DNA of 64,000 bases from Marsupella aquatica (taxonomy: Eukaryota; Plantae; Marchantiophyta): assembly GCA_973895155.1 (NCBI GenBank), contig OZ316891.1, positions 12,274,771-12,338,770 on the forward strand, read 5' to 3'. Shown here one piece after another: positions 1 to 42,100 of this stretch. The position numbers were made by a program, and so were the translations under genes. Within the stretch, counting starts at the first letter, position 1; each line of letters opens with the position of its first letter. The notes under the pieces are model-generated. The model was not told the DNA's origin and searched no databases. It saw only the letters and a list, made by a program, of their open reading frames with translations.

Positions 1-366
1 TGTGTTCGGGGATGTCGCTGTGTTCGGGGGACCGTTCATGTTGAGTGAGGGACTAAGTTGCATGTTCGAGTGAGGGACCGTTTTTGCGTGTTCCTTTACA
101 ATCAAAGTGTTCATAGTGGACAGGATGTTTGAGTGAGGGCACTGTGACAGCAACAAAAACGTCTCGACAGTTAGGGCGCTGTGGAAGCAAATAGAAGCTC
201 TCGACAACTCTCACAGCTTTTCTAGAATGTTGCGAATGACAGTATGGCCCAGACATACTCCATTAAATTAAATGGCACTTTGGAACTTTATATAGGTGTG
301 CAAATCAATACATCCAGGCGCAATCGCACTGAGCACAAATCAAACTATGATCCTCAATCTCAACTC

Positions 367-1029
367 CTACTGTAACTTATCTCCTGCAAAGCGATTCACC
401 AAATTTGTGATAGCCTTGCCTTTTGGCAATAGAACATTGATTCTCCTGGCTTTCTTGGCTGGCTGTGGTGATGGAGAGAAGTCCGTGAAGCTATCCAAAA
501 GATACAAATCAAAATCTTCTGTGGGTACCGGCTTCCTCACAGAGAGACATGCACTGACCCAATTAAAGCTGACGAACTTCACTCTCCCACTCCAGTAGTA
601 AAACTCCACAGTCCCCCATTCATACTTTGCCAAAATCGTCTGCCAATTCTTGGCAATCACATGAGTCGTCATTGAACTAAACCGGTAACAAATTGAACCT
701 CCACACTGGACAAATCGTCGCTTCAATAAATCAAATCGGCCTGGGCTGAATTCATCAGGAATCAGCAGTGCATACATGCCCTTGAATGTGTCTCGAGTCT
801 TGGCAAGTGCATGAGCCAGTGCATCCATCTCAGCTTTGACGTCTGTCTCAGCGTTTGGCTCCAGCTTAGTGCAATTTGCCTCCATCGCAGCATTTGCCTC
901 CATTTGAGTGGTCGCCTCAATCGCATTCTCATGAATGGACTCAATGTCTGCAACCAATGACTCTATGGCTGCCGCAGACTCCATCTCTGCCACCACATCA
1001 ATCCCTGCATTTGAACTCTTCTCTGCCAT
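367..1029 (-). CDS. BRCT-domain protein (acidic Ala/Glu-rich N-part, BRCT, basic NLS-like tail) inside the transposon
   Basis: Uninterrupted ORF, first ATG at 1029. FKGMYALL...FVQCGGSI...THVI...VSFNWVSACLSVRKPVPTEDFDL fits BRCT hallmarks (GG, THV, WxxxC). PAKKARR follows. Possible upstream exons at ~1370-1470 and ~1200-1290. Confidence 0.7.
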   Translation of the reverse strand: MAEKSSNAGIDVVAEMESAAAIESLVADIESIHENAIEATTQMEANAAMEANCTKLEPNAETDVKAEMDALAHALAKTRDTFKGMYALLIPDEFSPGRFDLLKRRFVQCGGSICYRFSSMTTHVIAKNWQTILAKYEWGTVEFYYWSGRVKFVSFNWVSACLSVRKPVPTEDFDLYLLDSFTDFSPSPQPAKKARRINVLLPKGKAITNLVNRFAGDKLQ

Positions 1030-1849
1030 CGCTACCAGCAAGCAAGAAAGCCTTACAAAAGATGAGAAATGAACAATGAGGCGCCTTGCACAATTGTCCC
1101 CGCCACTTTGAGAAGGGGCGTTGTGATCGATTTATGCTACAAATTAGGAAATTGCTCCAAAAGAGACAAAGTATGAAAACAGACAAAACATCCCACCATT
1201 CTCGGTCCATCACAAAATCGAGTTGGTGCCTTGAGCAAACATTGGGAACTCGGGAGGCTTTGGCTATGGACAGAAGGCAAACCAAAGAGCTGCAACGGGA
1301 GGGGTAAGTGAAGAAACTTCAGTCAATTGGAAACGGACTGTCAATCGTTAGCTCACTCATGTTAAGGTTACTTGATTGAGACTAATGCCTCCGTGAATTG
1401 CTTTGTTGCAGCAAGGATCAGAGGCCTTGAGGTCCTTGTCGTTGGCTCCTCGCGCGTTCGACTTCCTCCTTCCTGGCTCAGAACAGTACTAAGAGTGAAG
1501 GACGAAAACGGGTCAGTGCACGACAACTCATTCTTGTGCAAAGTTTCAATTCTATTGAATCATACTCATTGATGTCGACTCTGCCACTTTCTTACATTCG
1601 TTTCTCTTCATGGTCAACAGCCCACAATCGATAGTCGATAGTATATGATGAACTCGAGCGATTCTGGATGACAATAGTATTCCATAGTAACTCCTGATAT
1701 GCTTATGGCGATTTGCTTTCTTTCCAGCTTTATGAGTGACAGGAAACTAGATTCCAGAAAAAACCTTTTGTGATCGATGCTGTCTTGCACGAAGTGCTCA
1801 CATCAAACTGATACTCTGGGAAGAACGTTAATTTAAGTTTTCTCCTCCA

Positions 1850-2481
1850 TTACAAGTCATACTTCGGGATGAAACCTATACCAATAGAATTCTGGTCTCG
1901 TGCCAGGAGAAATTGACAGATTTTTCTTCACAGAAGGCAACTCACACGTGCAGCGATTGCTTCCTCAGCCTTCAACACTGCTGCCAAAATTGTGTCTTCC
2001 GGAATTTCATTGGACTTCGGATGCCTTCTGGCAACGTGAAGATCCTGTTACTGGATAATGATAATGAGTAAAGCCAGCTTCTCTAACAACTGCTAAAATG
2101 TGCATCCTTTGTTGGATCCTTATACTTTTCTTGTAACAAAATTCTTTTTCGTTAGACTTCTGCATCTGAAATAGAAACAAAATCCATGATAAAATCCTTT
2201 TGAGAGGCTTCGATTGAAGAATGAGTACTCACAAGGTAGTAGGCTGACTTGAACAGTTTATCACAGAGTGGACAGCATCAAACCTTCACAAGCTCAAAAC
2301 CAGTAACTCAGTACTGTAAGTACTCAGCTACTCCGTGACTTAGGATAAACAAAGTTGATGAGAAGTAGCTGCTCGTCATGCTCTTACCGTCTGTGCTTTG
2401 ACGGACTGCTGCACTTGAAGTTGTTGCTTGCGCTGAGATTGGTGAAGCTTTTGCTGTCGATGTTGGACTTTGCTTTGAACC
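1850..2481 (-). pseudogene. Captured multi-exon 3' fragment of a host gene (…CRSLTKKNFVTRK|DLHVARRHPKSNEIPEDTILAAVLKAEEAIA|ARDQNSIGIGFIPKYDL*)
   Basis: Short AG..GT-bounded exons at about 2388-2481, 2253-2303, 2127-2166 and 1952-2044 join in frame. The last acceptor appears mutated (CTG instead of CAG). Family not confidently named. Confidence 0.55.
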
Positions 2482-2713
2482 TACAACATAATCTCATAGG
2501 TGTGGATGGTCTGTAAGATAGCAAATTATTGTAAACAGAGCTAATTAACCATCTCGGAACTTCGCAGCAGGGAAACATGTGTCCTGATTTTACAAAGATT
2601 GGCCATCATAACTGGAGATTGGAGATGAGGGTTGTCCATTTTCTCGAGGGTTATTGTAATCCCTGGATTCCAGAAAAAACCACTTGTGATCGATGCTGTC
2701 TTGCACGAAGTGC

Positions 2714-3092
2714 TCACATCAAATTGATCATTTTTTTCAGAATTTTCCGCTTTTGTCGATCTTCCACCTGCAACGCTCTTTCTGTAAGGACTTGTTTCAA
2801 ACGGCACATTGACTTACGCAACTGGAAACAGACAGACATTGTAAGGTGAGTCCACATTCCCAAATTATCTATATCCAAGATTCTACACAAGAAATTATTC
2901 CACGAACTACTCCGATGAACAGGAAGACCGTTACCTTTGACATCCGTTCTGAATTTGGCATTCGGAGGCTTTGCGACAGCAACATCTGTTTTTGTGAAAG
3001 TAGCATGTTCTTTTCCTTTAGAAACACATACCACAGCTTGTGCAGGTCGTCCCACGACTTTAGTCTCAGTTCAGATGCTTTCCAGCCTCTGC
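2714..3092 (-). pseudogene. MRPL47: Captured C-terminal two exons of mitochondrial ribosomal protein L47 (uL29m)
   Basis: Exon 3092-2935 [37 protein letters not shown]...[12 protein letters not shown] intron, exon 2821-2714 LRKSMCRLKQVLTERA...KKMINLM*. This is the MRP-L47 signature. No N-terminal transit-peptide exon was recognised. Confidence 0.85.
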
Positions 3093-3548
3093 CTGCAAAA
3101 AAACACACATCGGACATGACCAAACACGATGATCTGACCCAGAAAATAACTCAATTGATCATACAGTTCATGGAGTCCATAGCACAAGCATTACACGAAG
3201 ACATTCAGCTCTCCCTAACAGAATTGTTGTCCGTCCGGCAGCAGGAGAAATTGCAACGGACATAGTAGGAAACCGGGCGAGGTAAAAAACCCTAATTTTG
3301 TGAAGTTGCTTGTTTGACCATTGAAACCGGGAGTCCTGATTGCTGTAGAGAGGTTCAAGGCCCCTGCCTCTTCTTCTATGGTCGCAACCAGGGTCGACCA
3401 TTCCCACCTTTCATTTCATGCCTTTTTTGAGTGTTTTGTTGTAGGCAGCCAGGGTTAAAAGTGCTATGTGAAGGAGGTTGCTACCCCTGGCATTGACAGA
3501 CCGTATTCATTGACAGACCGTATTCTCCTTTGTAGGAATTAGAGAGCT

Positions 3549-5547
3549 ATGGCAAGACATCCTCGTGGGACAGCTAATGGGAAGCGATGGACTTACTCTC
3601 TTAAGTTCAAGCTGGACGTGATTCGGGAATACAACCCCAACATCAAAGGGCAAGGCTTTGTGGCACTCAGCAAAAAATTTGGAGTGCCCCGGTCTGCTTT
3701 GAGAGGGTGGTACGAGAAGAGGGCAGAGTTGCAAGCCTCTCTTAAGGACGATAAGATCTTAACACGGAAATCACGCCGGTTAAGGGGAGGTGGACGGAGA
3801 CCATTGCTGCCCGGAATGGAGGAGGAGCTCCACACTTGGATCCTGGCACGGAATGAGAAGGGATTGAGGGTGAAGGACATGTACATTGCCAAGATGGCCT
3901 TGAAGATTGCAGAGAGGATGGCTACCAGCACAACAAATGAGGAGCTCGCGACATTTAAAGCGTCAACAGGTTGGTTGGATAGGTTCAAGAAGCGACACAA
4001 CCTGGTGTCAAGGAGACACACAACAGATCGCAAGCTACCAGAGAATGCTGTTGATTTGTGTCGGGCATTCATTCAAGAGTGCCAAGAATTGATTGACACT
4101 AACAAAATTAAGCCCAAAAACATTATCAACATGGATCAAGTTCCGCGGTACTATGAGACTAAGCCAAAGTCAACTATTGCTACCAGAGGCATTCAGACGG
4201 TGATGATGACAAAGGGTGGTACCAGCCATAAACGATTCACCATAGCTTTTTCCATCACAGGAGAAGGCAAGCATTTGAGACCACACATCCTCATCTCAAA
4301 AAGGAAGAATAAACCTGAAGTCCCGTTGGGCGTGTTTGTCGATGTGAACCAGACAAGTATATTTTTTTCAATATCTATTACTTGCAAACTAAGCTTCTCT
4401 TTTGTAATTTTCATGACTTTTTTAGGGTTGCCAGTAAACAAACTCTTTTCTAATTATTGACTGTGGGTTTTATACTATGCAGGTATGTGGAATGAACGGA
4501 TATGTTGGGAACACTTCAATGAAATAGTGATGAAGCGAGGTGAGACCCAATTCTACCGGGAGCCCACTCTATACATCATTGACGCATATGGACCCCACTT
4601 GAAGTGGCCCAAGGCACATGCAAAGGTACTGGAGGACTACAATGTGTTTGTGCGGATTGTGCCGGCGAATTTGACCTCCCTCTTGCAGCCTCTTGATGTT
4701 GCAATGAACCGGAGCTATCAGGCAGATTATGCAACACAATATGACACTTACATTGCAGATGCCTTAATTGATCCAAATTTGCAGACAACTGCAGGAAACC
4801 CTAAAGTTCCGGCTGCCAAAATGGTGGCAGAATGGGCACTTTCATGGATTGGAAATTGTCAAAAACAGGACGTGGCAAATGCATTTAGGGTAAGGTGGAG
4901 AAGTTTTGACATTATTTGTAAGTACAAACATTTTATGTGGAAACATTTGGCAAATATTTTCTAGTGAATCCTAATTAAGTTGATGCTTCTTGTGTTGTCA
5001 GGTTTGTGGCTTGGTGCCCAGCTCACAATTTGCAGTGGAAAACCTACATCTGCCACTAAGAGCTTTGTATGCAACAGACTTGGACTTGGCTGAATGGAAT
5101 GAACAGTATGGGCATGTACTTCACGAGAGTGAAGAATTGCGTCCCACTCTCGTCATCGAGCCGCCTACATGGTTTTGTCCTGAAGAGGATTACTCTTTGT
5201 TCAGATGCCTTCTTCGTTGCAAGGGTATACACGGAAGTGATGTGGACGAATACCTTGACACCTATGTCATAAAGCTGGTGGTGCACATGTCAATGTGTCC
5301 TGATCTTGATGACATTTTTGATGATGACGCTGCAGCTGACATGGTAAGTGGAGAAATGGTGGCAGGTACCTTGGCAGTGTTTGCAGCTTCAAACTTGGAG
5401 GAGTGGGAGATTGAGCTCACGGAAGTGAACCTTGACAACAAGATCATCCAAAATTTTGTGTACAAGGCGGAGGATCCTGTCAAGCGAGTTCATTTAGCAC
5501 GAACAGGGAATTACTTTTGTGTTCAGCTGAATGAAGGATTGATGTAG
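3549..5547 (+). CDS. pogo-family transposase (Brinker-like HTH + CENP-B/Tc5 HTH + DDE_1) with OTU-like C-terminal extension; exons 3549-4356, 4483-4889, 5002-5547, ~586 aa
   Basis: YSLKFKLDVI..KFGVPRSALRGW, FKASTGWLDRFKKRH, catalytic NMDQ / IIDAYGPH / LQPLD with DD37D spacing, and AFR|VCGL. Two GT-AG introns join the three ORFs in frame without stops. Confidence 0.92.
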
Positions 5548-6070
5548 TGCATGCACATCATCCTTCTTGGGTGACAACCATCTTGGGCATGTGTTCCTTG
5601 TGTCACTATGAGAGTTATGAGATCGATATTAGGACTGATTCTTCAATGAGAGTAAAATTTTGTAACTCTCATAGGTACACAAGGTGAACTTGTCCAAGCA
5701 TTTTGACTTCATTTTATGTGTTCATGATGCTTCCATACAAAAATGTTTCTCTTTTGAGGCAATTGAACACTTGTGTTTATGTTTTAAATTATGTTGTTCA
5801 CAATAGTGACCTTTTGGAACTACAAATATGTCATAATTAAATATGTTTTACATAATTATATGTTTACCAAGTGATAATGACTTGGTATATTTTTTGCATG
5901 GTTTGTAAGGTCTTATTTTGTGCAACAAATTAATTTGTTCTAGACTACTCATGACTTGTTGCATTTCAGTGTTTAAAGTAGCTACATTTTCCCAATTTAA
6001 CACTTATCTCTAACACATTGGTTGTATCCTATAATTCCAGCTTGTACCCCAAATTCATATAATGCCTAAA

Positions 6071-6233
6071 TTCGAACACAACGCCACAATTCGAACACAA
6101 CGCCACATGCTAAAAAATCATAAACAGAGTCTCAAAACTCGAACACAACGCCCTGGGCTCACTATTCGAATATAGCGCCCCTTGGCCCACTATTCGAATA
6201 TAGCGCCCGGGCGCTGTGTTCGGGGGAAGACGG
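6071..6233. repeat. Right TIR and subterminal transposase-binding-like repeats
   Basis: TCGAACACAACGCC x3, ACTATTCGAATATAGCGCCC x2, palindrome GCGCCCGGGCGC, then the terminal GCGCTGTGTTCGGGGGAAGACGG|TA. Confidence 0.85.
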
Positions 6234-8799
6234 TAGGGCTAGAAAACTTTCTTTGCAACCAAAAGAAGGGGCAGACAGGATCCACTGCAATAATACTGAC
6301 ACCAGAGAACCCATGAAAGCTTATTGCTCGTTGTAGGTGTTGTCCTCCATCTATATACTTTTCTTGTGAGTCAAATGCTCTGTTGAAAGAAAGGGGGGGG
6401 GAGGGGAGCAGAGCCCCAAATTCAAAATTACATGGCTAAGGACTGGAGCCGTGTCAAGTGATACCTACTCACAGTTAAAATGATCCAAGGCGGCTGATTT
6501 TAAGTCATGTTGCATGCCAACTGATCCCGCAACTGAGCGAAAGTCGCTGAGGACCTCAACAACTCGCTGCATGTCCTTGCGCTTAATGGTTGCCTCAATC
6601 ACCTAGCACTTTGACGATTCTCCTGTGCAGACCTTGGAGACTTGATCCAACATAATTTTCTGGTTCTAGTTTTTGCTGCTCTTTCCACCTGAATGCCCTC
6701 AGCAGATTTTCTATTACAGACACAATTTTGAATCTGGCATATTCATAGAACACTATCTGGCATTTTGAATTCCCAGTTGTGTGTCAGTTCCAGCACTTCT
6801 GTTCTCATTGCTTCAATTTCAGCACTTCTATTTTCATTGCTTCAATTTCAGCACTGTCTTTACAAAGACTTCCTGCATTGGCGGATGTGTACTTTGCTCA
6901 AGAGAATGCAAGGATGGAGTTTTGTCTAATCAATCCTTATCCTGCTGGCTCTGTTTAGATATATCCAGCAAAGCTCAGTGTCTCAGTCTCATTTCCCTCC
7001 TCTCTAAATGGGCAGTTCACCATTGCAATTGCAGAGCACACTCTAAGTAGCTATGGATAAAGGCAAAGGTTCACTGCAGCTGGATTAGGAGATAGCAAAC
7101 ATTATTGGACTAGCAACTCAATGATTGAAATGTGTCATGCCATTGAGAGTATACTTTAGTATATCGTACATCTAGGTATTGAAGTTTTGTATGTGTGCTA
7201 TATGAGCATTAAGTATTTAGTTTGAGTTTGTGCAAGGGATAGTTATCCCCTTGTGTTGGCTCAAAGGCCCCATCTTTCAATGTTGAGCCTTTGAACACAA
7301 GCTCAGGTGGCTATGGTGTGGCTGACCAAGTTGTGTGCATGTAACGTGGATTTCTTGAAGCACAAGGATCGCATCAGGTAGGATTGTTGTTGGGTTGACA
7401 TTGATCGTTGTTTGATTTGCAATATTGAAGATTATTCTGGGTTCCATTTGTACTCCATTCTCTTATGTTTGTGTTGTTGGATTATGACTATGCTTGGATT
7501 ATTATGTGTGACAAACAATGCATGTTGTGTAGTGATATGTATGCGCACAACAAATGCTCTACTCAATCTTCCACTCGGTTTTGCAGATTGATGGTTTGAA
7601 ATAGTTCATAGCAAGGTACTGCACAGGAAAGTGAGTATTGCTCGATGGATTTCTGTCATTGTGCATTTGTGCCAGCCTAACGCCTGGCCTCCATTTGTAT
7701 CTTTTGCCAGTTGAATGCATGTTTTCTTTTTTAGCCAATTTGCAATTGTCATTGTAAGAGGAAAATGTTAGATCTAGCATGTCAGAAAGGTTCAATTTTG
7801 TTTGATGAAATGATTTTCTCGCTTCCTCCTGCTGCATCTGTTCAGTGTGACTTTCATTCAATTGCAGACACACCCTCAACATCATTCTTAAAAGTTCTTC
7901 AGATTGACCAGGGATGCTAACAATATTGTTGGAGCCTGTTACATAATGTCAAGGGATTGCACAGAGCTATTACATGTTTCTTTGTAGAAATGGTCAGTTT
8001 GTGGTAGTGTTTGTTTTGGAGAAATTTCTGGCCTGCGTAATTTACTTGCTGGCTGGTTTCCTATGGTGGAGTGGTACATGTTGTGTATAATGTTTGTTAG
8101 AATGTTGAAGGACCCCTGCATCTGGAAGACTCTCATCTCCCAAGGGCCCCAAAAGCTCAGAAAGGGGACACATCACGCGGTTGCATAAACAAGGCACCTT
8201 ATAGAACTGCAAATAAATACCGCAATTTCTTGATCAAAACAATCTTGGCAGAAAAGCCTAATGTGGCAGCCTTTGAATGAAATACAACCAATCATTTGAC
8301 CTTAACAAAAAATGCCTCCATTGAAAAAATAACTTCTATAATACAGGGTTGCACCAAAAATTGCTGTGGTTGTTGTTTAAAAATGCAGGGCCGTTTTGCA
8401 TGAGAACAATACAAACAGGAAAAACCGGAAGGAATAAAGCCTGAAAAAATTCATTCCTACACTAAAGTACTGCAACCCTCACACAGGGCCACGACCATGC
8501 CTCCGCCTGACACCACACAGAATGACATTGGAGGGAAGGAGGCAGGCCCAAGGAGCCCCAACGGGAAGCCAGGCCCGACTAGCAGGAGCAAGGGAGGAGA
8601 TTCAAATTGCGAGTGGGGAGGAAGGAGGCATGACCAACTCGCAAGGGCAGGAGGAGCCAGGCCCAACTCGCAACTAAGGAGCGCTGACTCCCAACGAGGG
8701 TGCTACGACCAGGGAGCAAGGAAGGGAGAGTGACAACCCAATGGCTACCCCCTCGCCTATGACCCTGACCTGCACCCCGCCTTGCCTGACTGCTCTCAC

Positions 8800-9150: not shown

Positions 9151-9380
9151 GCAACTCATGGTATTGAGCTAGTAAGAAATAATATTGTAGTGTAGTATTG
9201 GTAGGTGGTCTTTGTCCGTCCCATACTACCATATCAAACTGTATAGGATTACAGAGGAAGGATGGGGACGGGGCCCCAGATTTTTTAAGTACCACAACTC
9301 AGATATGGCAAGTGAAGAACACTCAGGCCACGGCTGGCAGCCAAAGTCATGACACAACTTGCAATCTTCACCAAGAGGAA

Positions 9381-10230
9381 TATGCTTGATGGGATCCTTG
9401 CCAAATTAAACAAATTTACGTGGTAGGCCCTTATGAAACTTTTGTTACAAACTAGGCCCCCTCTGACACTTTTGTGTCAAATGTTCTTGTAAAGTTTCTA
9501 TAAAGAGATGTAGCTTGATATTATCATCAATAAGAGCTACTATGCAATTAGAGTCAAATCAATCTGAATGACAAACTGCACCATTGGGGAAGCCGCGGAG
9601 TAATGGCGGCCGTCGTGCAAATTGCGAGTTCCTAACATGTCTTTAGGTTTGAACTGCTACCACGCGGTCCGTGGTTGCTTCGTGCAACTTATACACAGGG
9701 TTTGCATGATGTTTTGACATTTCTTTTGTTATTGTGTCTAAGTATGGAAGGAATCAGGCTCTACTTTTGACCATTGGCCCCTACTACAAAGACGTTCAAA
9801 AGTTGTCCAAGTGTGGAAGGAACCAAGGATCTTTTACTATTGGATGTTTGGCCTTGTTGCAACTTTCAAACATTGTCTAAGTGTGAAACAAAGACAACAT
9901 GGAGTTAATCACAACTGGAAAATTTTGCTAGGCAACCTACAAGAACTAGACTTAATGTTATACAAACCCTCTATCATGTAGCAGCGGATCCCCTAAAACT
10001 CTAATCATGTGAAGACATAAATCATTATGTCTTCAAGCATAGAGGTACAGGCGGTGGACTATGGCGCGGTGCACGATGGAGTGGGATGGGAAATGTATGG
10101 TTGATCATGCAATTAGGCACCACATAAGAACCATGTGTACGGAAACCACATAGGGAGCCAGTTTGTAACAAAAGTTCACTGAAGGCTTATCACGTAAATT
10201 TATTTTGGCAAGGGTTCGATCATATTTATA
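9381..10230 (+). mobile_element. Non-autonomous TIR element, copy 1
   Basis: ~80-bp imperfect inverted ends (TATGCTTGATGGGA..TTGCCAAA..TTTACGTG..TTTTGTTACAAACTAGGC versus its complement). The interior is homologous to 14543-17434. Confidence 0.7.
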
Positions 10231-10389
10231 CCTCCCTTCACCAACAGTGTCCCTCAAGTAGGCTCGTTCATACCCTGTTCAAACTTGGGGCCGTCTGCAA
10301 GGATTTGTTTGGGCCAAGAGGCAGGACCCATCAAGTCTACTTTTCCCTCTAGAGTTGAGGATAATAGTAGGGTGGGCTTTGATCCAAGT

Positions 10390-11479
10390 CTGCGAAAGTG
10401 TATACATGTGCCCTAAAGCACGAAACGAGTGAATTAGGACTTTGGGAGAGAACAACTCAAACTGATCCCCCTCAATGGAAGGCGTGAACTGTACCCGGGC
10501 CAGGATCGACGGCCAGCCTCACCTCTGGAGACATAATAAACGTCGATCATGTTCTATGTTCCTTTATATCCGCGACATAGGACCATCCGTAGATAATTCC
10601 CGCACGAAACCGTACTGGCCTCATCATCCCAACAAGCCAGCAGACAGTTAGGGACACGGCAACGGCCGTCGTCAACTGACAGACACCTAAGGGGCGGTTG
10701 CCATTCCCGGGGTTAGACGGTTGCAATCACCGAAGAAATTTGGTCCCCCTTTTCCGCGTGAATTCCCCGATGGATACCCTGGGCATCCCGGTCCGGAAAT
10801 CCGGACCAGCTCTGCCGTCGACCAAAGAGGGCACGGCACAGTCATATTGGGAGAGTCTTTTACCGGCCCCTAGGTCACGCTATCCACATCCCTTTCCGGC
10901 TTTCCCGCCCCATTTATCGTCCACGTTATACTCACGGTACGCCGGTACCGTCTAGGACATCTTCGTACCCTTAAAGTACGTACTTGGGAGTACGGGAAGG
11001 ACGGGTCGTAGGACACGACACGGGAAGGTCCTTGTCTGGACCGGTACCAGGAAGGTCCTTTCATTGTCGGTGTCGCAGGGACGTACATGACAGTTACTCT
11101 GGTCCTGATCACTTTCTTTGGCCCGTCCCTGCCTTCAAGGAGAACGTAAGGGAGAACGTAAAGAAGAAAAGGAAGGATCGCTGGGTGGGCCTAAACAGAC
11201 AACCTTTCTTGGCTGTCTCACCGAATTACCATTGTGTTTCGTGTAAAGTAAGGTCTGTAAAGTAACGACCATATAAAGTCTTTCTTGTAAAGCAACGACG
11301 AGGATCCGTGTGTGACCGATCACGATACAAAAATCTCTTTCTCCAGCCTACCTTCCATTTAGAATAGTCAGTAAATGTGGGCCCTTAGTGCATTATTTAT
11401 TTATCCCTATATAGCATTATTCAATCAACAAATTGGGGCCCATAGCTGGTAAATTTTCCCTTCAGCGCATTACCATCAG
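10390..11479. mobile_element. Putative 1.09-kb insertion (solo-LTR-like) flanked by CAAGT direct repeat
   Basis: CAAGT at 10385-10389 and 11480-11484, ends CTG...CAG, CpG-rich composition distinct from the flanks, TATA-like CCATATAAAG near 11270. Confidence 0.4.
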
Positions 11480-12685
11480 CAAGTGTGGAGCCTTACCCCA
11501 TTTAATTTTATTTCCTTAACTCGTTTTCCTATCAGCCCTTAATTAAGAAGTTGAGGGCACACAAGCATTATGGAAAACTGCTCCATGAGGTTTGAGGGGA
11601 CCTGTCCTCACACTGCAGTAAGGCGAATAGATCAGGGAGCACATTGGCTGCGGGTTGCCATGAGTAATAGTTTGGATCCACTCCTGATTCTTATTTGAAA
11701 TGATGAATTGGAGTCTCATTAACACTTGCCTGTGTTGTTGACTTGTAGACCATATCAATATTTTACCAATTTGCAACGCAAAGAGAGAGAGAGCATCCTA
11801 TCTCCTGATCGTCTATTCCTCATTCTAATTCTAAATGAATAACTAATCCAGTTCTTAGTCATCTGAACAAACTACTCTTGTCATGATGCTCAACAAAGTC
11901 ATTTCTTCAAATAGGAGGATGGACAACAGGGAGAATGTCCTAAGATCAACCTTGCGTTCAAGATTTCTTTCAAAGTGGGACGTATATTGTTAATATTGTG
12001 TCTAACTAAATGATGGTTGTTTACAAAATCAAGCTGAGAACTAGTCAGCGGGCTAGTCAGTACAGAATATTAATAAGTCTGGCATAATGGTTCTCCCATT
12101 CCAGTCATGTTCTTAGTGCTTTGAGACAAACAAATTTCCCTTTGTCACCTTTTAAAAACTTGGGTGTTTGTTGGGCAAAGTGAGACACTGTCCCTCAATT
12201 GTGGCACAATGTTTGCTTCATGCTCCTTAATAAAAATAAATGTTGCCCACTCTCAAGACTTCAGCTCAACTTTGGTCTCTATCATGTCTATCTCTTGTCT
12301 ACTTCTTGTTTTTGGTCACATAAAGGGCAGAAATACTGAGCCTGGGCACATCCAAAACAAAGTGAAGAAACCCTAACCAAGAACACCCACAATTGACCAC
12401 AAAAAATGCTCAAAAGTTTGCCCACAATGTCTTGGCAGAAATGTGGCCTTGAATTTGCTCATAAACTGTCATTGACCCCAGCAACTAGGCTCCCTCAAAC
12501 TAATGCAGCCCAGCAAAAGATTGGAAACCCTAATTGCACCAATATAGACAAGTAACATGGAGTATGACGATGTACCTCTAGCAGTGATAGCTATTTGTGC
12601 GCTAGACTGCCCTTGCAGGTTTTTTTCACAAAACACATGGCCATGTTTCTTCAGTAAATTTGGCCGGGTACTTTCTGAATTCTGC

Positions 12686-12898
12686 CTCCTGCTTCTGCAA
12701 AAGCCTTCTGACCTATTTAAAATATACCTATATAAGAAAGACAATATTGTATACTTATTTTTACTCTGAATTTAAAATGATCAATTTAACTTCAGCCTCC
12801 TGCTTCTGCAAAAGCCTGCTGACCTATTTAAAATAGACCAAAGACAATATTGTATAATTATTTCTACTTTTAATTTAAAATGATCAATTTAACTTCAG
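12686..12898. repeat. Tandem duplication of ~105-110 bp
   Basis: CCTCCTGCTTCTGCAAAAGCC...TGATCAATTTAACTTCAG occurs twice back to back. Confidence 0.85.
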
Positions 12899-13145
12899 AA
12901 TATAACAGGCCTATGTTGGTTTTTTTGGACTTAATAGTTTTTCCCAAAGGAGTTGCAAAGGCATGGAATCTAACACTATAATACGCAATCCCGCCCATTT
13001 GGCCACTTTCGTCCGTCATCCCGTTACCAATTCAAATTTCAGCGGGAATCAATCTTAACCGTCAGATACAAGCATCTCATTTTTTGTAGCCATCCGATCG
13101 TGAAACGAGGCATGCACCAGATTGAATGAGGCACTCAGGCACGCG

Positions 13146-13460
13146 CAGCCCCCTCCATAGGGCTTCGCGCCCCTCCTGGCCCCGACACCCCTGCTCCCCG
13201 TCCGTTGCGAATGAAGGAGGCACGAGCCTCACTCGCCCCCCTCCATAGGGCTTCGCGCCCTCTTACCTCGCTCGCTCCCCTCCATAGGGCTTCGTGCCCT
13301 CCTGCCTCGCTCGCCCCCCCATAACATGCGATTGATTGCTCGAGAAGTGAGAAGAAAACTTTCTTTCGAGGCATACATCAGATTCTCCCTATGGGACCGG
13401 CCCTCCTTGCACAGTGCGTTCGGTAATTCTTTCGAGGCATATATCAGATTCTCCCTATAG
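13146..13460. repeat. GC-rich short repeats, likely TE interior
   Basis: CCCCTCCATAGGGCTTCG(C/T)GCCC x3 and TCTTTCGAGGCATA.ATCAGATTCTCCCTAT x2. Confidence 0.7.
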
Positions 13461-14542
13461 AGCTCGTAACACCATAATGAGCCCAACTTAAACACAAATT
13501 GAAGTACAATCAATTCTGGTAACAACTAAAATGTCTTAAACAAAAGTGGGAAAAGGGGGGGCCCCAATGCCGCAACATTTCTCCGTTTCCCGTGAGAAAA
13601 CTCATCGTGCTTACAGGTGTGTATCGTAGCCGTCCATAGAAAATTATGACACTCAAATGAACTTCCATGAAACTCGCAAGACTTAAAAAAAAGAGGAGAA
13701 TCCTCAAACGCGAAGGGCGACAATTATTGCCAAACAAAGATCACTTTATAACCTTATGAGATTCGTTCTTGCCAGAGAAAGAAACGTAATGGCCGTCCCT
13801 GCCGTCTTCAATCGTGAGGTACACTTGGCTTTCTTCAGTTCGCCGGCTGCATCATCCACCTACCCAGCCGGTCATTACCAGTTGCACGTGGTGCGCCCGT
13901 ACGACAAGGTACCGGAAAGGACGGTTGGCGTACTGCTCGTGTACTTCAACCAGTACGGACGGTCCCACCGAGTTCTATCTTTGGGCCCACCATTCCCCAG
14001 ACGCGGCAAAGACGCAGAATAATGTAAATTGGAAAACGGAAATGACCTCTGGAAGACTGGAACTCTGACTCTGGAAGCAATGCAGCATTGACATGGCGTA
14101 ACTTGACATTGCATAGCCGGACAGTCATGATGTCACGCGGTCTCGAGTTGAGCTTCGTTCTGCGGGTCAGCCTATTTCTTTTTTTCAATTTTCGCCCAAT
14201 TCCACCTCCACAAAAAGCGTTCGCCACTTTGGCTAACATTCGTTAGGTTCTTTGTATGTCATGCGCCACTTTCACATCAATCATGGACCCCATTAGCCAA
14301 AATCTAAGGGTCAGTATACAATCCAAGAAAAACGGACAAAGAATACTCCTAGCATCTTCTCCTTTAGAGCTACATTTGCCAAACTAGTTAGAAAAACAAC
14401 AAAAAAAAACCTTAAAAAATAAGCTCCTTTGGGTGACCAACCATCATGCAATCCTGGCACAAAGCAGGGTAATGGGGCTAGTTGCCCTGATCAGGCAACT
14501 ATGGTCTGGTTCCAGGGAGGTTTCCAGATATATATGTATATA

Positions 14543-15409
14543 TATACTTGATGTGACCTTTGCCAAGAGAAATTTGAGTGATGGGCTAATTATGTGTTCA
14601 CATAACTATAAGAGTGGTAAGGGATCTGTCGCTACATCATAATGGGTTTGTACAACATCTAATCTAAACATTTAGTCTAGTTTTTGCAGACTTGTAAACA
14701 TTAAGAGTGTTAGGGGATCTGCCGTTACATGATAATGGGATTGTATAACATTTACTCTAAACATGTAGTGTAATTCTTGTAGACTTGCAAACTTGTTTCA
14801 CATTTGGATAATTTTTGAAAATTGCAACAAGGGCAAATAGCCAAAAATAAAAGATCTTTGGTTCCTTCCATACTAAGACAAATTTGGGGTCTTGATGTGA
14901 GAAGACTACATCCATGTTTTTGTTGTTCCACATTGGACAACTTTTGAACATTACAATGGGGCCCAACGGCCAAAGTAGAGGATTCATTCCATACTTAGAC
15001 ATAAAAACAAAGAGAAATGTCACAACATCATGAAAACCCTATGCATAGGTTGCATGAAAAAAATCCTTTAAAAAATAACAACAATAATATAATATAATAT
15101 AATAATAAATGAAGCAACTTAAAGACGGACCATATGGTCAAAATTCAAACTTGAAGTGATGAACCATATTGTCTTCACTTAGAAACTCTTATTTTGCGCA
15201 ACGGCTGTCACTACTCCGTGGTTCAATTGTCATTCAACACTGCTTGACTCTAAACTTGACTGTAGCTCTTATTAGTGACAGCTAAAATTCCTTATAGGAG
15301 CTGTACAAGAACATTTGACACAAGAGTGTCACAAGGGGCCTAGTTTGTAACAAAAGTTTTGTAAGGGCCTATCACGTAAATACTTTTGGTAGGGGTCCCA
15401 TCAAGCATA
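14543..15409 (-). mobile_element. Non-autonomous TIR element, copy 2 (reverse, partly deleted)
   Basis: Reverse complement of the copy 1 interior. Ends GGCCTAGTTTGTAACAAAAG...CCCATCAAGCATA. Confidence 0.7.
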
Positions 15410-15414
15410 TACTA

Positions 15415-17434
15415 TATACTTGATGGGACCTACCTTTGCCAAAATAATTGACATGATGGGCCCTTATGAGACCTTTCTTACAAACTAGGCCCCATACGTA
15501 GGTTCCCTACACATGGTTCTTATGTGGTGTCTAACTACATGGTCAACCGTACATTTCCCACCGCCCTCCACCGCACGTCGCATCATAGTCCACTGCGTGC
15601 ACATCTATGCTTGAAGACATAATGGATTATAATGTCTTCACACAATCGATTTGTAGCGTTTTAGATGATAGTGGGTTTGTACAACATTAAGTCTAGATCC
15701 TGAAGACTTGCAAACATTTCCTGTTATGCTTGACTTTGTGTTGTCTTTGTCTTTGTTTCACACTTAGACAATTTTTGAAAGTTGCAACTAGGGCAAACAG
15801 CCAAAAGTAAAAGATCTTTGGTTCTTTCCATACTTGGACAAATTTGGGGTCTTGATGTTAGAGGACTACATCCATGTTGTCTTCGTTCCACAATTTATAA
15901 CCGTTGCAATAGGTGTCAATGGCCAAAGTAGAGGATTCATTCCATACCTAGACAAAAGAACAAAGAAAAACATTATGAAGCAACCTAAAGCACTAGTACA
16001 AAAATGACCCCTAAACTGATTTGCTACGCATCGGACGCCTTCGGCAAAATGTTGTGGTTTTTATCGGTGGTCTGATTTTAGTCCAATTGCACTTTCCAAT
16101 GCTCAAACAGTCGGGTAAGCGTGATTGGACCGAGATCGGAAAAGTCCAATTCTTCGGGTATTGGAAATTCGGTTTCAATTCAAAAATGATGGCAAAACCA
16201 TGTCCAATTCTATTAGTATGGCATCATGCGGTCCGAGCACTTTGGAATTGATATGCAATGTGCGATGGGGTAAATTGCAAAAGCTCAACCCGACAACCAT
16301 GGAAAGTGTGGAGCCAATACTTTTTCTCAATCTAGTGGCGGGCTAATTAGTGTGTGTGTGCAGACTTGAACTCCATTGGTTGGCTAGGTTGTGTGTGCAG
16401 ACACCCATCCCAATTGCTATTCCTCCAACATGGAGCTTAACTATGTGGTTATTTACTAGTGCATTGTACATGGAAGCTTGACAATTTTGGTGTTTGATAT
16501 AGACTCTTTGGGACTTTTATACACTTCTAAATCTGTTAAGACGGCCACACTTTGGACCCCATTTCCAATCCTAACTAACATGGATCACTAAGTCCGTTTA
16601 ACTCACAATTGGACCCCAATCCCATTCTAGTTGCATTGCAAATCACACATCCAATTTAATAACGATTGGACATGCTTTTCCAATCCTTGAGTGCTTGGAA
16701 AACTTTACTGATTATTTACGTCACGAGTACAAATTTCTGTTTCCAATTTAATCACTCATCAAAGTTTCCAATTAAATGCGTATTGAAACATCCGATCTTC
16801 ATAGAATTGCAACTAGGAATTCCAGCTCCATCGGAAAAATGGGCTTGAGCTTTTCTTTGGAAAGGCGTTTACGATTTATTTAGAATTGAAACAAAATTGG
16901 ACCATGTGGTCCAATGTTGACTAGCATGGGCAGTGGATCCGTTGTGTCCACAATTGGATACGGTGTCCGTTTGAGGTTTGAATGGAATGGTGTTTGTCCA
17001 ATTCAAGTAGAATGGCAAAGTTCAATTCGTGTTACATCAAAAAGTGCAGTTGGTGATCCAATTGGAATAGAATGGCAACTCTTGGCATAGTTGGAATGCG
17101 AGAATCAGAGTAGGCCCCAAAATGTACTAGTGAAGATGGACAATATGGTAAAAATTCAAACTTAAAGACGTGAATCATATTGTCTTCACTTCAACTTGTA
17201 GTTCATGCGACGGGTGCCACTACTCCACCGTTACCCCATGGTGTATTTGTCATTTGACATGGTTTTCAAACTCTAAACTTGACAATAGCTCTCATTGGTG
17301 ATAATATCAAGCTAAAACTCCTTATAGGAGCTGCACAACAACATCTAACACAATAGTGTCGGAAAGGGCCTGGTTTGTAACAAAAGTTTTGTGAGGGTCT
17401 ATCACGTAAATTTGTTTTGGTCTTGTCAAGCATA
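15415..17434 (-). mobile_element. Non-autonomous TIR element, copy 3 (reverse), interrupted by a CACTA element
   Basis: Starts TATACTTGATGGGACC and ends TTTGTAACAAAAG...TCAAGCATA. The interior aligns with copy 2 once 15991-17135 is removed. Confidence 0.75.
15991..17132. mobile_element. Non-autonomous CACTA (En/Spm) element
   Basis: Termini CACTAGTACA...TGTACTAGTG, 3-bp TSD AAG (15988-15990, 17133-17135). The empty site is visible in the paralogous copy at ~15111-15150. Confidence 0.9.
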
Positions 17435-37840: not shown

Positions 37841-39112
37841 TAGATGAATGAATTTCCAGGCAAGTGCCAAACTTAAGCTTGAGGAAGAAGAAAGCTCGTA
37901 TCGAAGGGCTAGGGAATTGTTAACAATTGAAAAAAAACCTTGTCCCGCATCGAATCCGTCTGGACCCAAACATCGCAGCGCTGTAAAGCAGGATACCACA
38001 AACCGATCATTTCCAGTTTCGACTGGTTTATATGCAACGGGTCCTGTTTGGCATGATATCCGTGGCATCTGACGTCAGACTTACCCAGCAGAGCCCTTAA
38101 AAACGAAAAGTCCCTCGCCCCAGTCTGTTCCCATACTTTATGAAGCTTCTTTTGAACGCAGATCCCTTTCTTTCCCTGACCTTGTACCACATACGGAAAG
38201 GGCATCTTACTGCAACGTACTTACGAAACTGTGACATAATAATTATTGTAAACAGAGACCATATCGTAATCAACAGGCGCATCGTACACGCAGAACATAA
38301 CGTATACATATACGGAAAAGGTTGCCCTGGGTGAGTTGTACATGGTGTTTATACGTGTGATGATACGTAAAAAATGATGGGCTGCCATATGATGAGTTTC
38401 ACCATGGCATATGAGAAACGGACGGCCCAGTCAAATGTTCCTGTTGACTGCTACGGCGGACTTCGGCTGCCGTAACTCTTGCTCAGAATGTAATCTTTAA
38501 TTAGTAAGATCGATTCAGTATTGTGGCCGTTACACTAGATTGTCATCCTGTAGTACGGTTGTTAACCTTACTAGTGCTTCTGGGGTTTCAGGTTTGGAAA
38601 ATGTGGACGTTTTAAGTTCAGTCAGATTCCTAGCATTGTTTGAGAAACACAAACTTACAAGAAAGAGTTATGGTAATGAAAATCCTACATTAGTGTTTTA
38701 TTTGCAGAATCCCTTTCATTGTCAGACTCGACAAAGTCTTGGCACTGCTATTTGAGGGAAGAAGATAAGGAAAGGGCAAAAACACAAGGCCAATCTTCTT
38801 TTATCAAATACAATTCTTAGGGTTTAGTGTCCACTATCTGACTGATTTTGCAGAGTGCTTAAGCTTGAACCATCCCATGGTAAATCTCTGGCCGTGGGTA
38901 TGAGTGCACCTCAGCAGAACCTGCCCTCTTAGGGGACATCCATGACTTTGTTATGAAACTAGATGTGTACCTTAAATCATAACATGAAGCAAGTGGTAGT
39001 TCTTGATCTCTTGCTTTTATCTCTTTAGGGGTTTGCATTTGCACTTTTCTTTTGAGTTTGATGTCTGTCCTCTATGGATCTATTTTGCTTTTATTACATA
39101 GTACTATGTTTG

Positions 39113-42100
39113 TATTCAGAGACAAGAAGATGAAAGTAGAACATTCGCCAACAACTGGAGGTTCCCTCCAACTTCCATTACCTTATAGAGTCCCTAAGGA
39201 CTCGATCTATTACATGCGGTTAGGTTGTTAGTAACAACCTAAGCTTCGGTTAGTTAGGACTAACTAACCCTACTACCATGACTTGGGTTAGTGTTAACTC
39301 CATATTACAACACTCCCCCTTGGTTACTTGAATAGCATAATAAAGTAACCATCTTAAGGAGTAATACTAACCCTAGGTGGATTATTTTGGTACCCATAAG
39401 GAGAGTGTGGTCTCATTAAACCCCCCCCCCCCCCGCTTTCTTCTGGGGGAAAGAGTACCACCACTTTGTACATTGCATGGGTCCGTATTGAAATGCAGAT
39501 GCAGAGTAGAAAAGAAAACTAAGAGTATTGCGCTGCAGCATTCCTAATAAGGTATGTGACCTAAAACTGGCTTATGTTACGTCTTTTTACGAAGGGAAGG
39601 AGTTTAGCATGGAGATGACGGGTCGCTGCGTCTCCATGTGTAATGCTTCGTTATTTTCGTATAGACGGTGAAGGTAAATGGCTGCTGTGTCTTCTATAAT
39701 CGTGCAGAAGATGGAGGCGGATCGCAATGGTCATGTCTGCTCTGTGTGCAGTGTGGATAGGCTTCTCATGCCAATGCCGTATGAATGTTCCTTATGCAAA
39801 ATTGGTGGTAATGGCTTTGTGAATAAGTCTGCTCGGTTGTCTCGGCTGGGTATCCATTCGACCTGAATTTGATCACCGTGCTGTTCATGTGTATAAAAGA
39901 ATTTCGGTGAGATGTGTTTAATTCTGTCACCTTTTATGAAGCCATGAGCAATTTGATCCACACAGGGGCGGTTGTCTTCGTAAATAGTAGTGGGCTTTTG
40001 AAATTGTTGGCGACCAGTGTGCTTGTGGATGTGATGGAGCATGCTGTGTAACCATACACATTCTCTGCAGGCTTCATACAGAGCTATGATTTCCGCATGA
40101 TTAGAGGATGTTGTGGTTAGTGTTTGCTTGGAGCTTCGCCATGAAATTGCAGTGCCACCTTGAAGAAAAACGTACCCTGTTTGTGATTTGGCATCTCCAG
40201 GGTCAGAGAGGTAGCCGGCATCTGCAAATCCAATCAATTTGTCTTCAGCATCTTTCGGAAAAAATAGACCAACGTCGACTGTGCCCTTCAGGTATCGAAA
40301 AATCCTTTTCAGCCCATTCCAATGGCGGATGGTTGGCTGAGAACTATGTCTGGCCAATAAGTTGACAGCAAAAGAGATGTCGGGACGAGTCTGATTAGCC
40401 AAATACATAAGGGCGCCAATGGCATTGGTGTGTTGACAGGGTGAGCTGCTTGCATATTGAACTGTCGTAAAATCTTCTCTGTGTAGGTAGATTGACTAAT
40501 CAGAATACCATTGTGCAGGTAGTCGAACTGAATGCCGAGGCAGAAGTTAGGTGGACCAAGGTCCCTCATTTCGAATGTGCCCTTCAGAATACTGAGTGTA
40601 TGGGCTGTGAGTTGTGGTGTCCCGAATATATTCAGGTCATCTACATAGATAGCTATTATGACAAATTCCTCTGCCTGAGATTTTAGAAATAGACAGGGTG
40701 CTAGCTCATCATTTATAAATCCCAAAGCTAACATTTCAGCTTGGAATCGTTTATACCACATCCGGCCACTTTGCTTTAGGCCGTACATTGAACGCAAGAT
40801 TTGTACGGCATATTCCATTTGAGGTCTCTTGCTACGTGCAATAGGCACTTGTTGTGTAGTATGTGGTGGGTATAGCCCACCAGAGCAGACAGTAGGTCCT
40901 GAATTTGTAATTTGCGCAATTAAGGGCTCAGTAGGAGCCATCTGGATCATACCAGATCGTAGTGATTGGACTGATATGCCTGACTTCTCCCCCTGAATGT
41001 GGAAAGATAATCTATTAAGAAGCTCTGGAGGAGCTTTCATGTAAATTTTGGTATCTAGCATGCCATACAGGTAGGCTGTTATTACATCCAGGATGTGCAT
41101 GACTAGCTTGTGTAGTAAAGCAAACGCTATCATGTAGCGGTATGTAATGGAGTCCATCACTAGGGAATGTGTCAGGTCATAGTCTTGACCTGGGATTTGG
41201 GTGTAGCCCTTCGCCACTGGCCTTATATCTAACTACTTCGCCCTTGGCATTTCTCTTTCGGATGAAGATGAATCTGTAGCCGGTCAGATGGCTGTGGGTG
41301 GGAGCTGGAGTGATTGGTCCAAAAACCTGGCGTTTGATCAAAGAGTCAAGTTCAGAGTTAATAGCCGCTTCCCATTGGGGCCAGTCTGGACGAGATTGAC
41401 ATTCTGTTACTGTCAATGGATCTGGAGTATCATTGGTTATCTCTTCTGATATCAGATATGCAAATGCATAATCTATGGTAGTGGTTTCTCGTTTCCAGAC
41501 TTTGCCTGAATGCATATATTGGATGGCTATTTCGTCATTGTCGTTAACTAAAGTTGGTTGGGGTCCAGGGGATGCAGGTGTGGGTCTTAGGGCTATAGGT
41601 ACAACAGCTGTGGTCTGGCGTTGCCTGGGTTGGCTATCTTTCGAGCCTAGTGGTCTGCCCCTTTTTGCCTTAGGGGGGGCTTCGGTAGCTAGTCGAGTGG
41701 GTTGGATTCGTGCTGGTGCATTGGCAGCTGGTATTAAGGACCGAGTGACATTTGCTGCATCATTAAAGGCGTCTGGGAGTTTCTCTAACATTTGTTGAAG
41801 GTGGAGGATTTTCTGTACTTCTGCTTCGGTTTGGACTGTCCGTGGGTCATGCTGGAAAGGGGGTTTTAACTGCCATTGTAATTCCGGAGTATGGACAAGG
41901 GGACTTGATGTCTGGTTCTCCATTAATTTGGGGAAATCGTCTTCAATAAAATCACAATCAAGGAACCGTGCCTTGAATAGATCTGCTGTAGATGGTTCTA
42001 AGTATCGAATAATCGATGGTGAGTTGAATCCTACATATATCCCCTGTTGTCTCTGTGGGCCCATCTTGGTGCGTTTGGGTCCCAAAATGGGGACCAGTAC

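Follow-up and report, generated by a model that had tools for sequence, protein, structure and literature searches.

Does a DNA transposon of a liverwort carry a BRCT gene of its own, and if so, what might the encoded protein do for the element? The question arises at one edge of a 64,000-nucleotide stretch of the Marsupella aquatica genome (GenBank assembly GCA_973895155.1, contig OZ316891.1, positions 12,274,771 to 12,338,770; the whole stretch is hereafter called the window). A first-pass annotation had described there a transposon-borne, intronless BRCT protein resembling X-family DNA polymerases (Pol X), and had proposed that it recruits or competes with host end joining as one half of a two-component transposition system.

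The BRCT reading frame lies within a pogo-like transposon

The BRCT open reading frame (ORF) sits inside a pogo-like DNA transposon of about 6.3 kb (Table 1). Five public sequencing runs from three studies, one of which is possibly the source, hold the window stretch, and contigs were compared over positions 1–7500 (runs X1, X2, X3, and X5) and 340–1060 (X2–X5). At the right end of the element, contigs depart at positions 6236–6237 into flanks that are unlike one another (agreement about 0.4): 16 in X1, 38 + 11 in X2, 54 in X3, and 23 in X5. The left terminal repeat falls outside the window; what the window shows of the left end is a set of subterminal repeats and a joint bridged by contigs of X1, X2, and X3, in which a copy of the right-end motif at 6222 is linked to position 1 with 10–11 letters between. 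The repetition of right-end motifs at positions 1–34 and the contigs that bridge to position 1 thus imply that the left end lies a short way outside the window and that the element encloses the ORF. None of the right-end-like motifs joined to position 1 leads on to the terminal bases and TA, and the idea that positions 1–34 are a neighbouring copy's right end was rejected on that ground. The terminal repeat and TA of pogo-like Tc1/mariner elements are therefore seen at the right end, with its many unlike flanks, and are matched on the left by subterminal repeats and the joint. The description 'transposon-borne' holds for the window copy, in which the ORF lies between the two ends.

Table 1. 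Positions of the features of the element, numbered from the first letter of the window.
Feature	Positions	Strand	Details
Left-end subterminal repeats	1..34		Motifs match the right end's inward repeats in reverse complement
BRCT ORF	367..1029	minus	ATG 1029 to TAG 367; 663 nt, 220 aa, stop-free
Basic motif PAKKARR, aa 190–196	442..462	minus	From sequence; in disordered tail, pLDDT <50 over 185–220
BRCT domain, aa 80–177	499..792	minus	Profile and fold; W129 and W138 family-specific
Acidic, Ala-rich helical N-part, aa 1–77	799..1029	minus	AF2 helices aa 11–53 and 59–77
Captured MRPL47 fragment	2714..3093	minus	Last two exons and GT-AG intron, 5' part missing; Pfam MRP-L47 E 5.5e-22
Pogo/Tc5-type transposase	3549..5547	plus	586 aa, no internal stop; exons 3549–4356, 4483–4889, 5002–5547
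Right end	6066..6235		Subterminal repeats (repeat family D13), terminal repeat to 6233, TA 6234–6235

The transposase gene is oriented divergently from the BRCT ORF, and its exons were joined computationally at GT-AG sites predicted from the sequence. The product matches Pfam HTH_Tnp_Tc5 (E = 1e-15) and DDE_1 (E = 3.5e-5) and contains the triad D196, D303, and D341, with 37 residues separating the last two, the combination of helix-turn-helix (HTH) and DDD triad expected of a pogo-like transposase. Between the transposase and the BRCT ORF lies the MRPL47 fragment, which is clearly passive cargo and shows that the element captures host DNA. This capture within the same element keeps a passive-cargo reading of the BRCT ORF alive. 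A 66-nt piece near the end of the fragment is duplicated 916 nt away (1747–1812 and 2663–2728, 94% identity), which suggests a rearrangement inside the cargo. Summed contig depth, which is not copy number, is 5–9 times that of the flank over the BRCT ORF (0.4–0.7 of that over transposase exon 1) and 1.3–2.7 times that of the flank over the middle zone at 1751–2750. A search of positions 1–7000 against Rfam gave no match.

The encoded protein has a BRCT fold

The predicted ORF of about 220 residues is present on the minus strand without an internal stop, and belongs to a stop-to-stop frame of 254 codons (1131–367). Among 500 base shuffles of positions 1–3500, a frame of at least 254 codons arose in none and one of at least 220 codons in a single case. 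The frame is contiguous, and to that extent 'intronless' is apt; an upstream exon lies beyond what that statement covers. The three parts that the first-pass annotation had assigned to the protein were all recovered: an acidic helical N-part (16 Asp/Glu against 4 Lys/Arg over residues 1–77, with helices in the AF2 model), a BRCT domain at about residues 80–177, close to the span of 786–502 given earlier, and the motif PAKKARR, which falls in a low-confidence tail and, judged from its composition, is a possible nuclear localization signal for import into the nucleus. A scan against NCBIfam returned a single match, to FlhF, which is compositional and lies on the N-part.

That the ORF contains a BRCT fold is certain on the strength of the modelled structure. 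Searched alone, the ORF matches Pfam LIG3_BRCT at E = 1.7e-4 and BRCT_2 at E = 0.0068, in both cases below the curated cut-off, with the ORF reaching 22.3 of 27 bits. An AF2 model computed with 16 sequences reaches pLDDT values of 87–97 over residues 81–170, which follow long helices and precede a disordered tail, against 38.7 from the single sequence. The top matches to this model in Foldseek and in the VIA fold search are exclusively BRCT domains, the best of which include PARP4, XRCC1, TopBP1, Lig4, and Fcp1. Gly111 and Trp157 correspond to the conserved BRCT Gly turn after helix 1 and the Trp in helix 3. A BRCT domain at this position, as proposed in the first-pass annotation, was thus recovered by profile (sub-threshold in Pfam) and by AF2, Foldseek, and VIA; a fold search against viral proteins gave no match at E = 0.001 or better.

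The assignment to Pol X fares less evenly. By sequence, human Pol λ is the best match in the PDB (E = 0.017–0.03), followed by TdT and Fcp1, and in a pairwise alignment Arg98, Leu101, and Leu102 of the ORF correspond to Arg57, Leu60, and Phe61 of human Pol λ. Arg57 and Leu60 are described as the most important residues for Ku binding (PMC12056208), and the Arg and Leu of helix 1 that contact Ku are therefore present in the ORF by alignment. By fold, in contrast, Pol λ (VIA Z = 11.2, rmsd 2.2, 94 aligned) ranks below PARP4 (Z = 14.8, rmsd 2.1, 96 aligned), XRCC1 (Z = 13.0), and Lig4 (Z = 12.3), and in Foldseek XRCC1 is at the top (E = 1.3e-6) with Pol μ at rank 18. When Pol X sequences are left out of the family profile, TOPBP1 (3e-8) and Pol λ (3.4e-8) nearly tie, and a tree of 17 BRCT repeats, the phylogenetic comparison suggested earlier, has good support at 2 of 14 branches and settles no subtype. 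Relative to the BRCT domains of human Pol λ, Pol μ, and TdT, the ORF thus has the same fold, its top PDB sequence match, and the aligned helix 1 residues, but differs in a sequence identity of about 20%, a long acidic helix, tryptophans of its own, and the lack of polymerase, lyase, and HhH domains; no Pfam match to the 8-kDa, fingers, palm, or thumb domains of X-family polymerases was found in it. An origin from a Pol λ-type BRCT is plausible from these sequence comparisons. Between the ORF stop codon and the window edge, at which the element ends, there are 366 nt, and the possibility that the ORF is exon 1 of a host Pol λ gene was rejected because the stop codon is followed by only about 0.4 kb of the element.

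Most relatives are BRCT proteins without a polymerase

A phmmer search of 1.84 billion representative sequences yielded 13 matches at E = 0.001 or better: one 73-residue piece (P0053, 66% identical), eleven polymerase-less proteins of 111–313 residues, seven with one BRCT and four with two, and one Pol X, which is the weakest match (hhalign probability 96) and the only one with a catalytic domain. Twelve of the 13 are thus without a polymerase domain. Apart from P0053, no full-length protein among the 1.84 billion representatives is closer than about 30–34% in the BRCT. The RxxL motif in which the ORF resembles Pol X is present in the ORF itself but is not a family trait: Arg98 and Leu101 are kept together in just 3 of 12 relatives and Arg98 alone in 4 of 12, and P0053, the closest relative, has Leu at the Arg98 position. 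The single-BRCT relatives nearest to the ORF (P0054, P0056, and P0065) retain RxxL. Trp129 and Trp138 are each found in 10 of the 11 relatives that cover those sites and are absent from the Pol X match.

As a group, P0054–P0063 and P0065–P0068 are single or tandem BRCT proteins with the two conserved Trp residues and, for the most part, 15–40% mutual identity. The relatives come from Logan, JGI, ENA, and NCBI as sequences without genomic context, and some of those with a single BRCT may represent exons of longer genes. We found no published description of this polymerase-less BRCT family. Word-based searches for homologues of the ORF found none of near length (162 candidates) or longer (106 candidates), and searches of metagenome contigs (121 pattern matches) and viral contigs (19 pattern matches) gave no locus for it; the relatives P0061 and P0059 and the transposase alignment likewise had no counterpart in viral contigs.

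The BRCT domain and tail show an excess of silent differences

In each run, the BRCT ORF is represented by several overlapping versions that are 80–99% identical. Among 32 of the 278 pieces, 21 are ungapped (one of them over 303 nt, 565–867, at 80.5% identity), 6 have an in-frame gap, and 5 are frameshifted by two lesions. Versions of the N-part differ by in-frame indels of +3 and +9. A change of Trp146 to stop occurs in X3 and in the sole X5 contig covering the site, and was counted among the replacements; an apparent change of Ser6 to stop was rejected, since neighbouring changes within a single contig replace that codon as a whole. Broken versions of the ORF thus occur alongside those whose frame is kept. 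No contig spans both the BRCT ORF and the transposase. We infer that all versions lie in the transposon, and some could be host genes: one piece (X2 piece 3) has a depth of 19 where the flank has 16–24, like that of a single-copy flank.

Selection was assessed on the best-supported 40 of 248 differences in four runs, each compared on its own with the window codon, and the split by domain was introduced once the pattern had been seen. Residues 78–220 show 11 silent and 7 replacement differences (pN/pS 0.18–0.25), a silent excess with p = 0.0004–0.004, depending on transition weight, or 0.002–0.003 with the runs' own change spectrum. Residues 1–77 show 6 silent and 16 replacement differences (pN/pS 0.75–0.99), and the whole ORF accordingly 17 and 23 (pN/pS 0.38–0.52; p = 0.003–0.03). 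As a control, the transposase has 15 silent and 7 replacement differences (pN/pS 0.16; 22 coding among the best 40 of 960 differences). When the same 18 differences are read in other frames, 2–9 are silent (9 in one antisense frame) against 11 of 18 for the ORF. These comparisons give signs of selection on the BRCT domain and tail, whereas the N-part looks fast-evolving and unconstrained. On the question behind the dN/dS comparison proposed for the ORF, the pN/pS values favour selection on the BRCT domain and tail, at about 0.2, and not on the N-part.

The transposase clade does not share the BRCT ORF

Transposase relatives comprise 36 matches, including Phytophthora, Riccia sorocarpa, Chara, and metagenomes, the top 14 of which are 42–51% identical; the nearest are from Phytophthora fragariae (P0073/P0084), Riccia sorocarpa (P0011), and metagenomes. 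The Riccia sorocarpa transposase loci include KAL3690532.1 and KAL3690641.1. The clade (P0001–P0036) is common to the host, Phytophthora, and Riccia sorocarpa at 45–51%, with a weaker Chara match, and its patchy spread may reflect horizontal transfer. Its members have a conserved C-terminal extension of ∼150 residues with a weak resemblance to OTU proteases (E = 0.041 for the profile against OTUD5). Pfam OTU is matched in 2 of 24 clade members (best E = 0.068), and exon 3 of the window transposase (5002–5547) searched alone gave no OTU-type match.

Harbinger, MuDR, and CACTA are obligate two-gene transposon types. In the present case, a second gene is not found throughout the clade. The related loci analysed were the best 80 among 207 metagenome matches that had been confirmed; two of these 80 are both full-length and closely related, many of the contigs are short, and most loci are distant. 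The BRCT ORF was detected in none of these 80 loci by tblastn (best E = 0.9), and the BRCT family profile matched none of their 4804 peptides. At one locus, L002, the complete element measures 2.33 kb, encodes only a transposase (38% identical), and has a terminal repeat that resembles that of the window element. This element (321–2653) is compact and intronless, has perfect 33-nt terminal repeats, and, judged by this architecture, is possibly a minimal active pogo. The transposase-only element and the 80 loci devoid of the ORF indicate that the BRCT ORF is a lineage-specific addition and not an obligate partner. 'Two-component system' was therefore too strong a term, and the co-occurrence with the transposase clade that it predicts was not observed in the best 80 of the 207 matches.

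A model in which the BRCT protein is a decoy at Ku

We consider it probable that the BRCT ORF is a selected, lineage-specific accessory gene. As for its role, we tentatively propose that the protein acts as a decoy at the site on Ku70/80 where Pol λ docks. Beyond the fold, every step of this mechanism is one that we infer. The protein would enter the nucleus through PAKKARR and bind host Ku70/80 by way of Arg98 and Leu101 at the Pol λ docking site, and Pol λ-assisted end joining at the excision break would be blocked. Repair would shift towards the sister or homologue as a template for copying, whereby the donor site would regain the element and a cut-and-paste move would yield a net gain of one copy. 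The BRCT ORF would be optional, as the wider clade transposes without it.

Published work offers precedents for individual steps. Catalytically dead Pol λ is reported to be dominant negative in human cells through its Ku contact (PMC12056208), and plant Pol λ is reported to bind Lig4/XRCC4 through its BRCT and to have a role at transposon excision sites (PMC4444747). Excised Tc1 is described as being restored at the donor site by homologous recombination (HR) and not through non-homologous end joining (NHEJ) (PMC13148408). Because HR restores an excised element and NHEJ does not, an element has reason to hinder end joining. Against the decoy stand the fold ranking, in which Pol λ comes after PARP4, XRCC1, and Lig4, the scarcity of the Arg98/Leu101 pair among the relatives, the existence of broken versions, the seemingly unconstrained N-part, and the 80 related loci devoid of the ORF. 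Copy gain by cut-and-paste transposons depends on the host pathway by which the donor break is repaired, and a transposon gene that influences this choice would allow the matter to be tested directly with one small protein and one point mutant. Pogo elements being usually single-gene, a selected second gene made out of a docking domain for DNA repair would add a new type of accessory factor to those of plant DNA transposons, and a natural modulator of NHEJ might be useful for gene targeting in plants. A broader version, in which plant DNA transposons recruited the Ku-binding domain of Pol λ as a stand-alone decoy and the 12 relatives represent a wider family of element-borne repair modulators, is unlikely.

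The ORF could instead be passive cargo that rides along like MRPL47, either a captured host gene or one belonging to a small host family of genes for stand-alone BRCT proteins, and the silent excess would then be due to contigs that derive from host paralogues, or to divergence that preceded the capture. The same element does hold an evident DNA-level capture, exons and intron included, and gene capture by TIR elements including Mariner is reported to be common in plants (PMC12187468). Related complete elements without the ORF, the frameshifted and stop-bearing versions, and diverged pieces at single-copy-like depth, which could be host loci, are also consistent with this reading. We nevertheless regard it as somewhat doubtful: the ORF is whole, with start, stop, and basic tail, rather than a fragment, its best-supported differences occur in many contigs and are as rich in silent changes as those of the transposase, and, P0053 aside, the 1.84 billion representatives searched include no full-length protein closer than about 30–34% in the BRCT.

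Two further readings accept an accessory gene and assign it another role. Its partner may be something other than Ku, reached by a BRCT–BRCT or peptide contact: XRCC1 or a ligase, a checkpoint or replication factor of the TOPBP1 type, chromatin, or the element's own transposase, with a role in targeting, timing to S phase, or anti-silencing. The evidence of selection serves this reading as well as the decoy, the best fold matches point to it, the family keeps its two tryptophans and not the Ku motif, and four relatives have tandem BRCTs, unlike Pol X proteins; yet the ORF is nearest to Pol λ and TdT by sequence among solved structures, and its closest single-BRCT relatives retain RxxL. We hold a partner other than Ku to be just as doubtful as cargo. 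Finally, the protein might bind Ku as a recruiter that helps end joining reach the place of excision or integration and thereby spares the host cell. Ku70 and DNA-PKcs are reported to be needed for Sleeping Beauty transposition, with Ku70 binding that transposase (PMC7827188), and in Paramecium specialised Pol X proteins are reported to repair transposase-made breaks (PMC11997757). According to Pfam, however, the BRCT protein lacks any catalytic or DNA-binding domain that it could deliver, a bare binder of the Ku site is dominant negative in the human-cell study cited above (PMC12056208), and a bridge needs a transposase-binding surface, the sole candidate for which is the N-part, where no constraint is seen. 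A recruiter is accordingly quite improbable.

Comparison with known systems and other features of the window

The element shares with the pogo family of Tc1/mariner the Tc5/CENP-B HTH and DDE_1 domains, the TIR and TA, and the DDD triad, but at about 6.3 kb against about 2.3 kb it adds two introns, the BRCT ORF, and MRPL47 DNA. It is likely a pogo element with an accessory gene of a new domain type; the literature searched, mainly open papers, yielded no eukaryotic DNA transposon with a BRCT gene. Extra ORFs in a Tc1/mariner-type element have a parallel in the TBE/Tec elements of ciliates, for which purifying selection on TBE ORFs is reported (PMC7325037), although families and hosts differ and the extra ORFs there encode a zinc-finger protein, a small unknown ORF, and a recombinase rather than a BRCT. 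The accessory proteins VANB/VANC and TnpA of plants are likewise lineage-specific second genes, often co-opted host domains, that evolve faster than the transposase (PMC13547354). In the main text of that Arabidopsis atlas, BRCT, pogo, and mariner do not occur, and none of the accessory proteins it treats is reported there to act on break repair (PMC13547354). Pack-TYPE (Pack-TIR) elements also carry host gene fragments between TIRs, as MRPL47 is carried here, but are defined as non-autonomous (PMC12187468), whereas the window element has an intact 586-aa transposase and a whole BRCT ORF; it thus resembles them in its captured fragments and not in autonomy. The distinction between accessory and cargo genes is discussed elsewhere (PMC6431247).

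Several other features occur in the window. A copia-type LTR retrotransposon at 39112–44894 has 201-nt LTRs that are 99% identical and a gag-pol region split over several frames, and a second LTR-like pair of direct repeats (48997–49274 and 54593–54868) is about 5.6 kb apart with no long ORFs between. The cluster of dispersed direct and inverted repeats at 9380–17420, which are 77–91% alike, probably consists of old non-autonomous elements. Near the far edge, a minus-strand frame at 62355–62798 matches UPF0193 (E = 1.2e-7).
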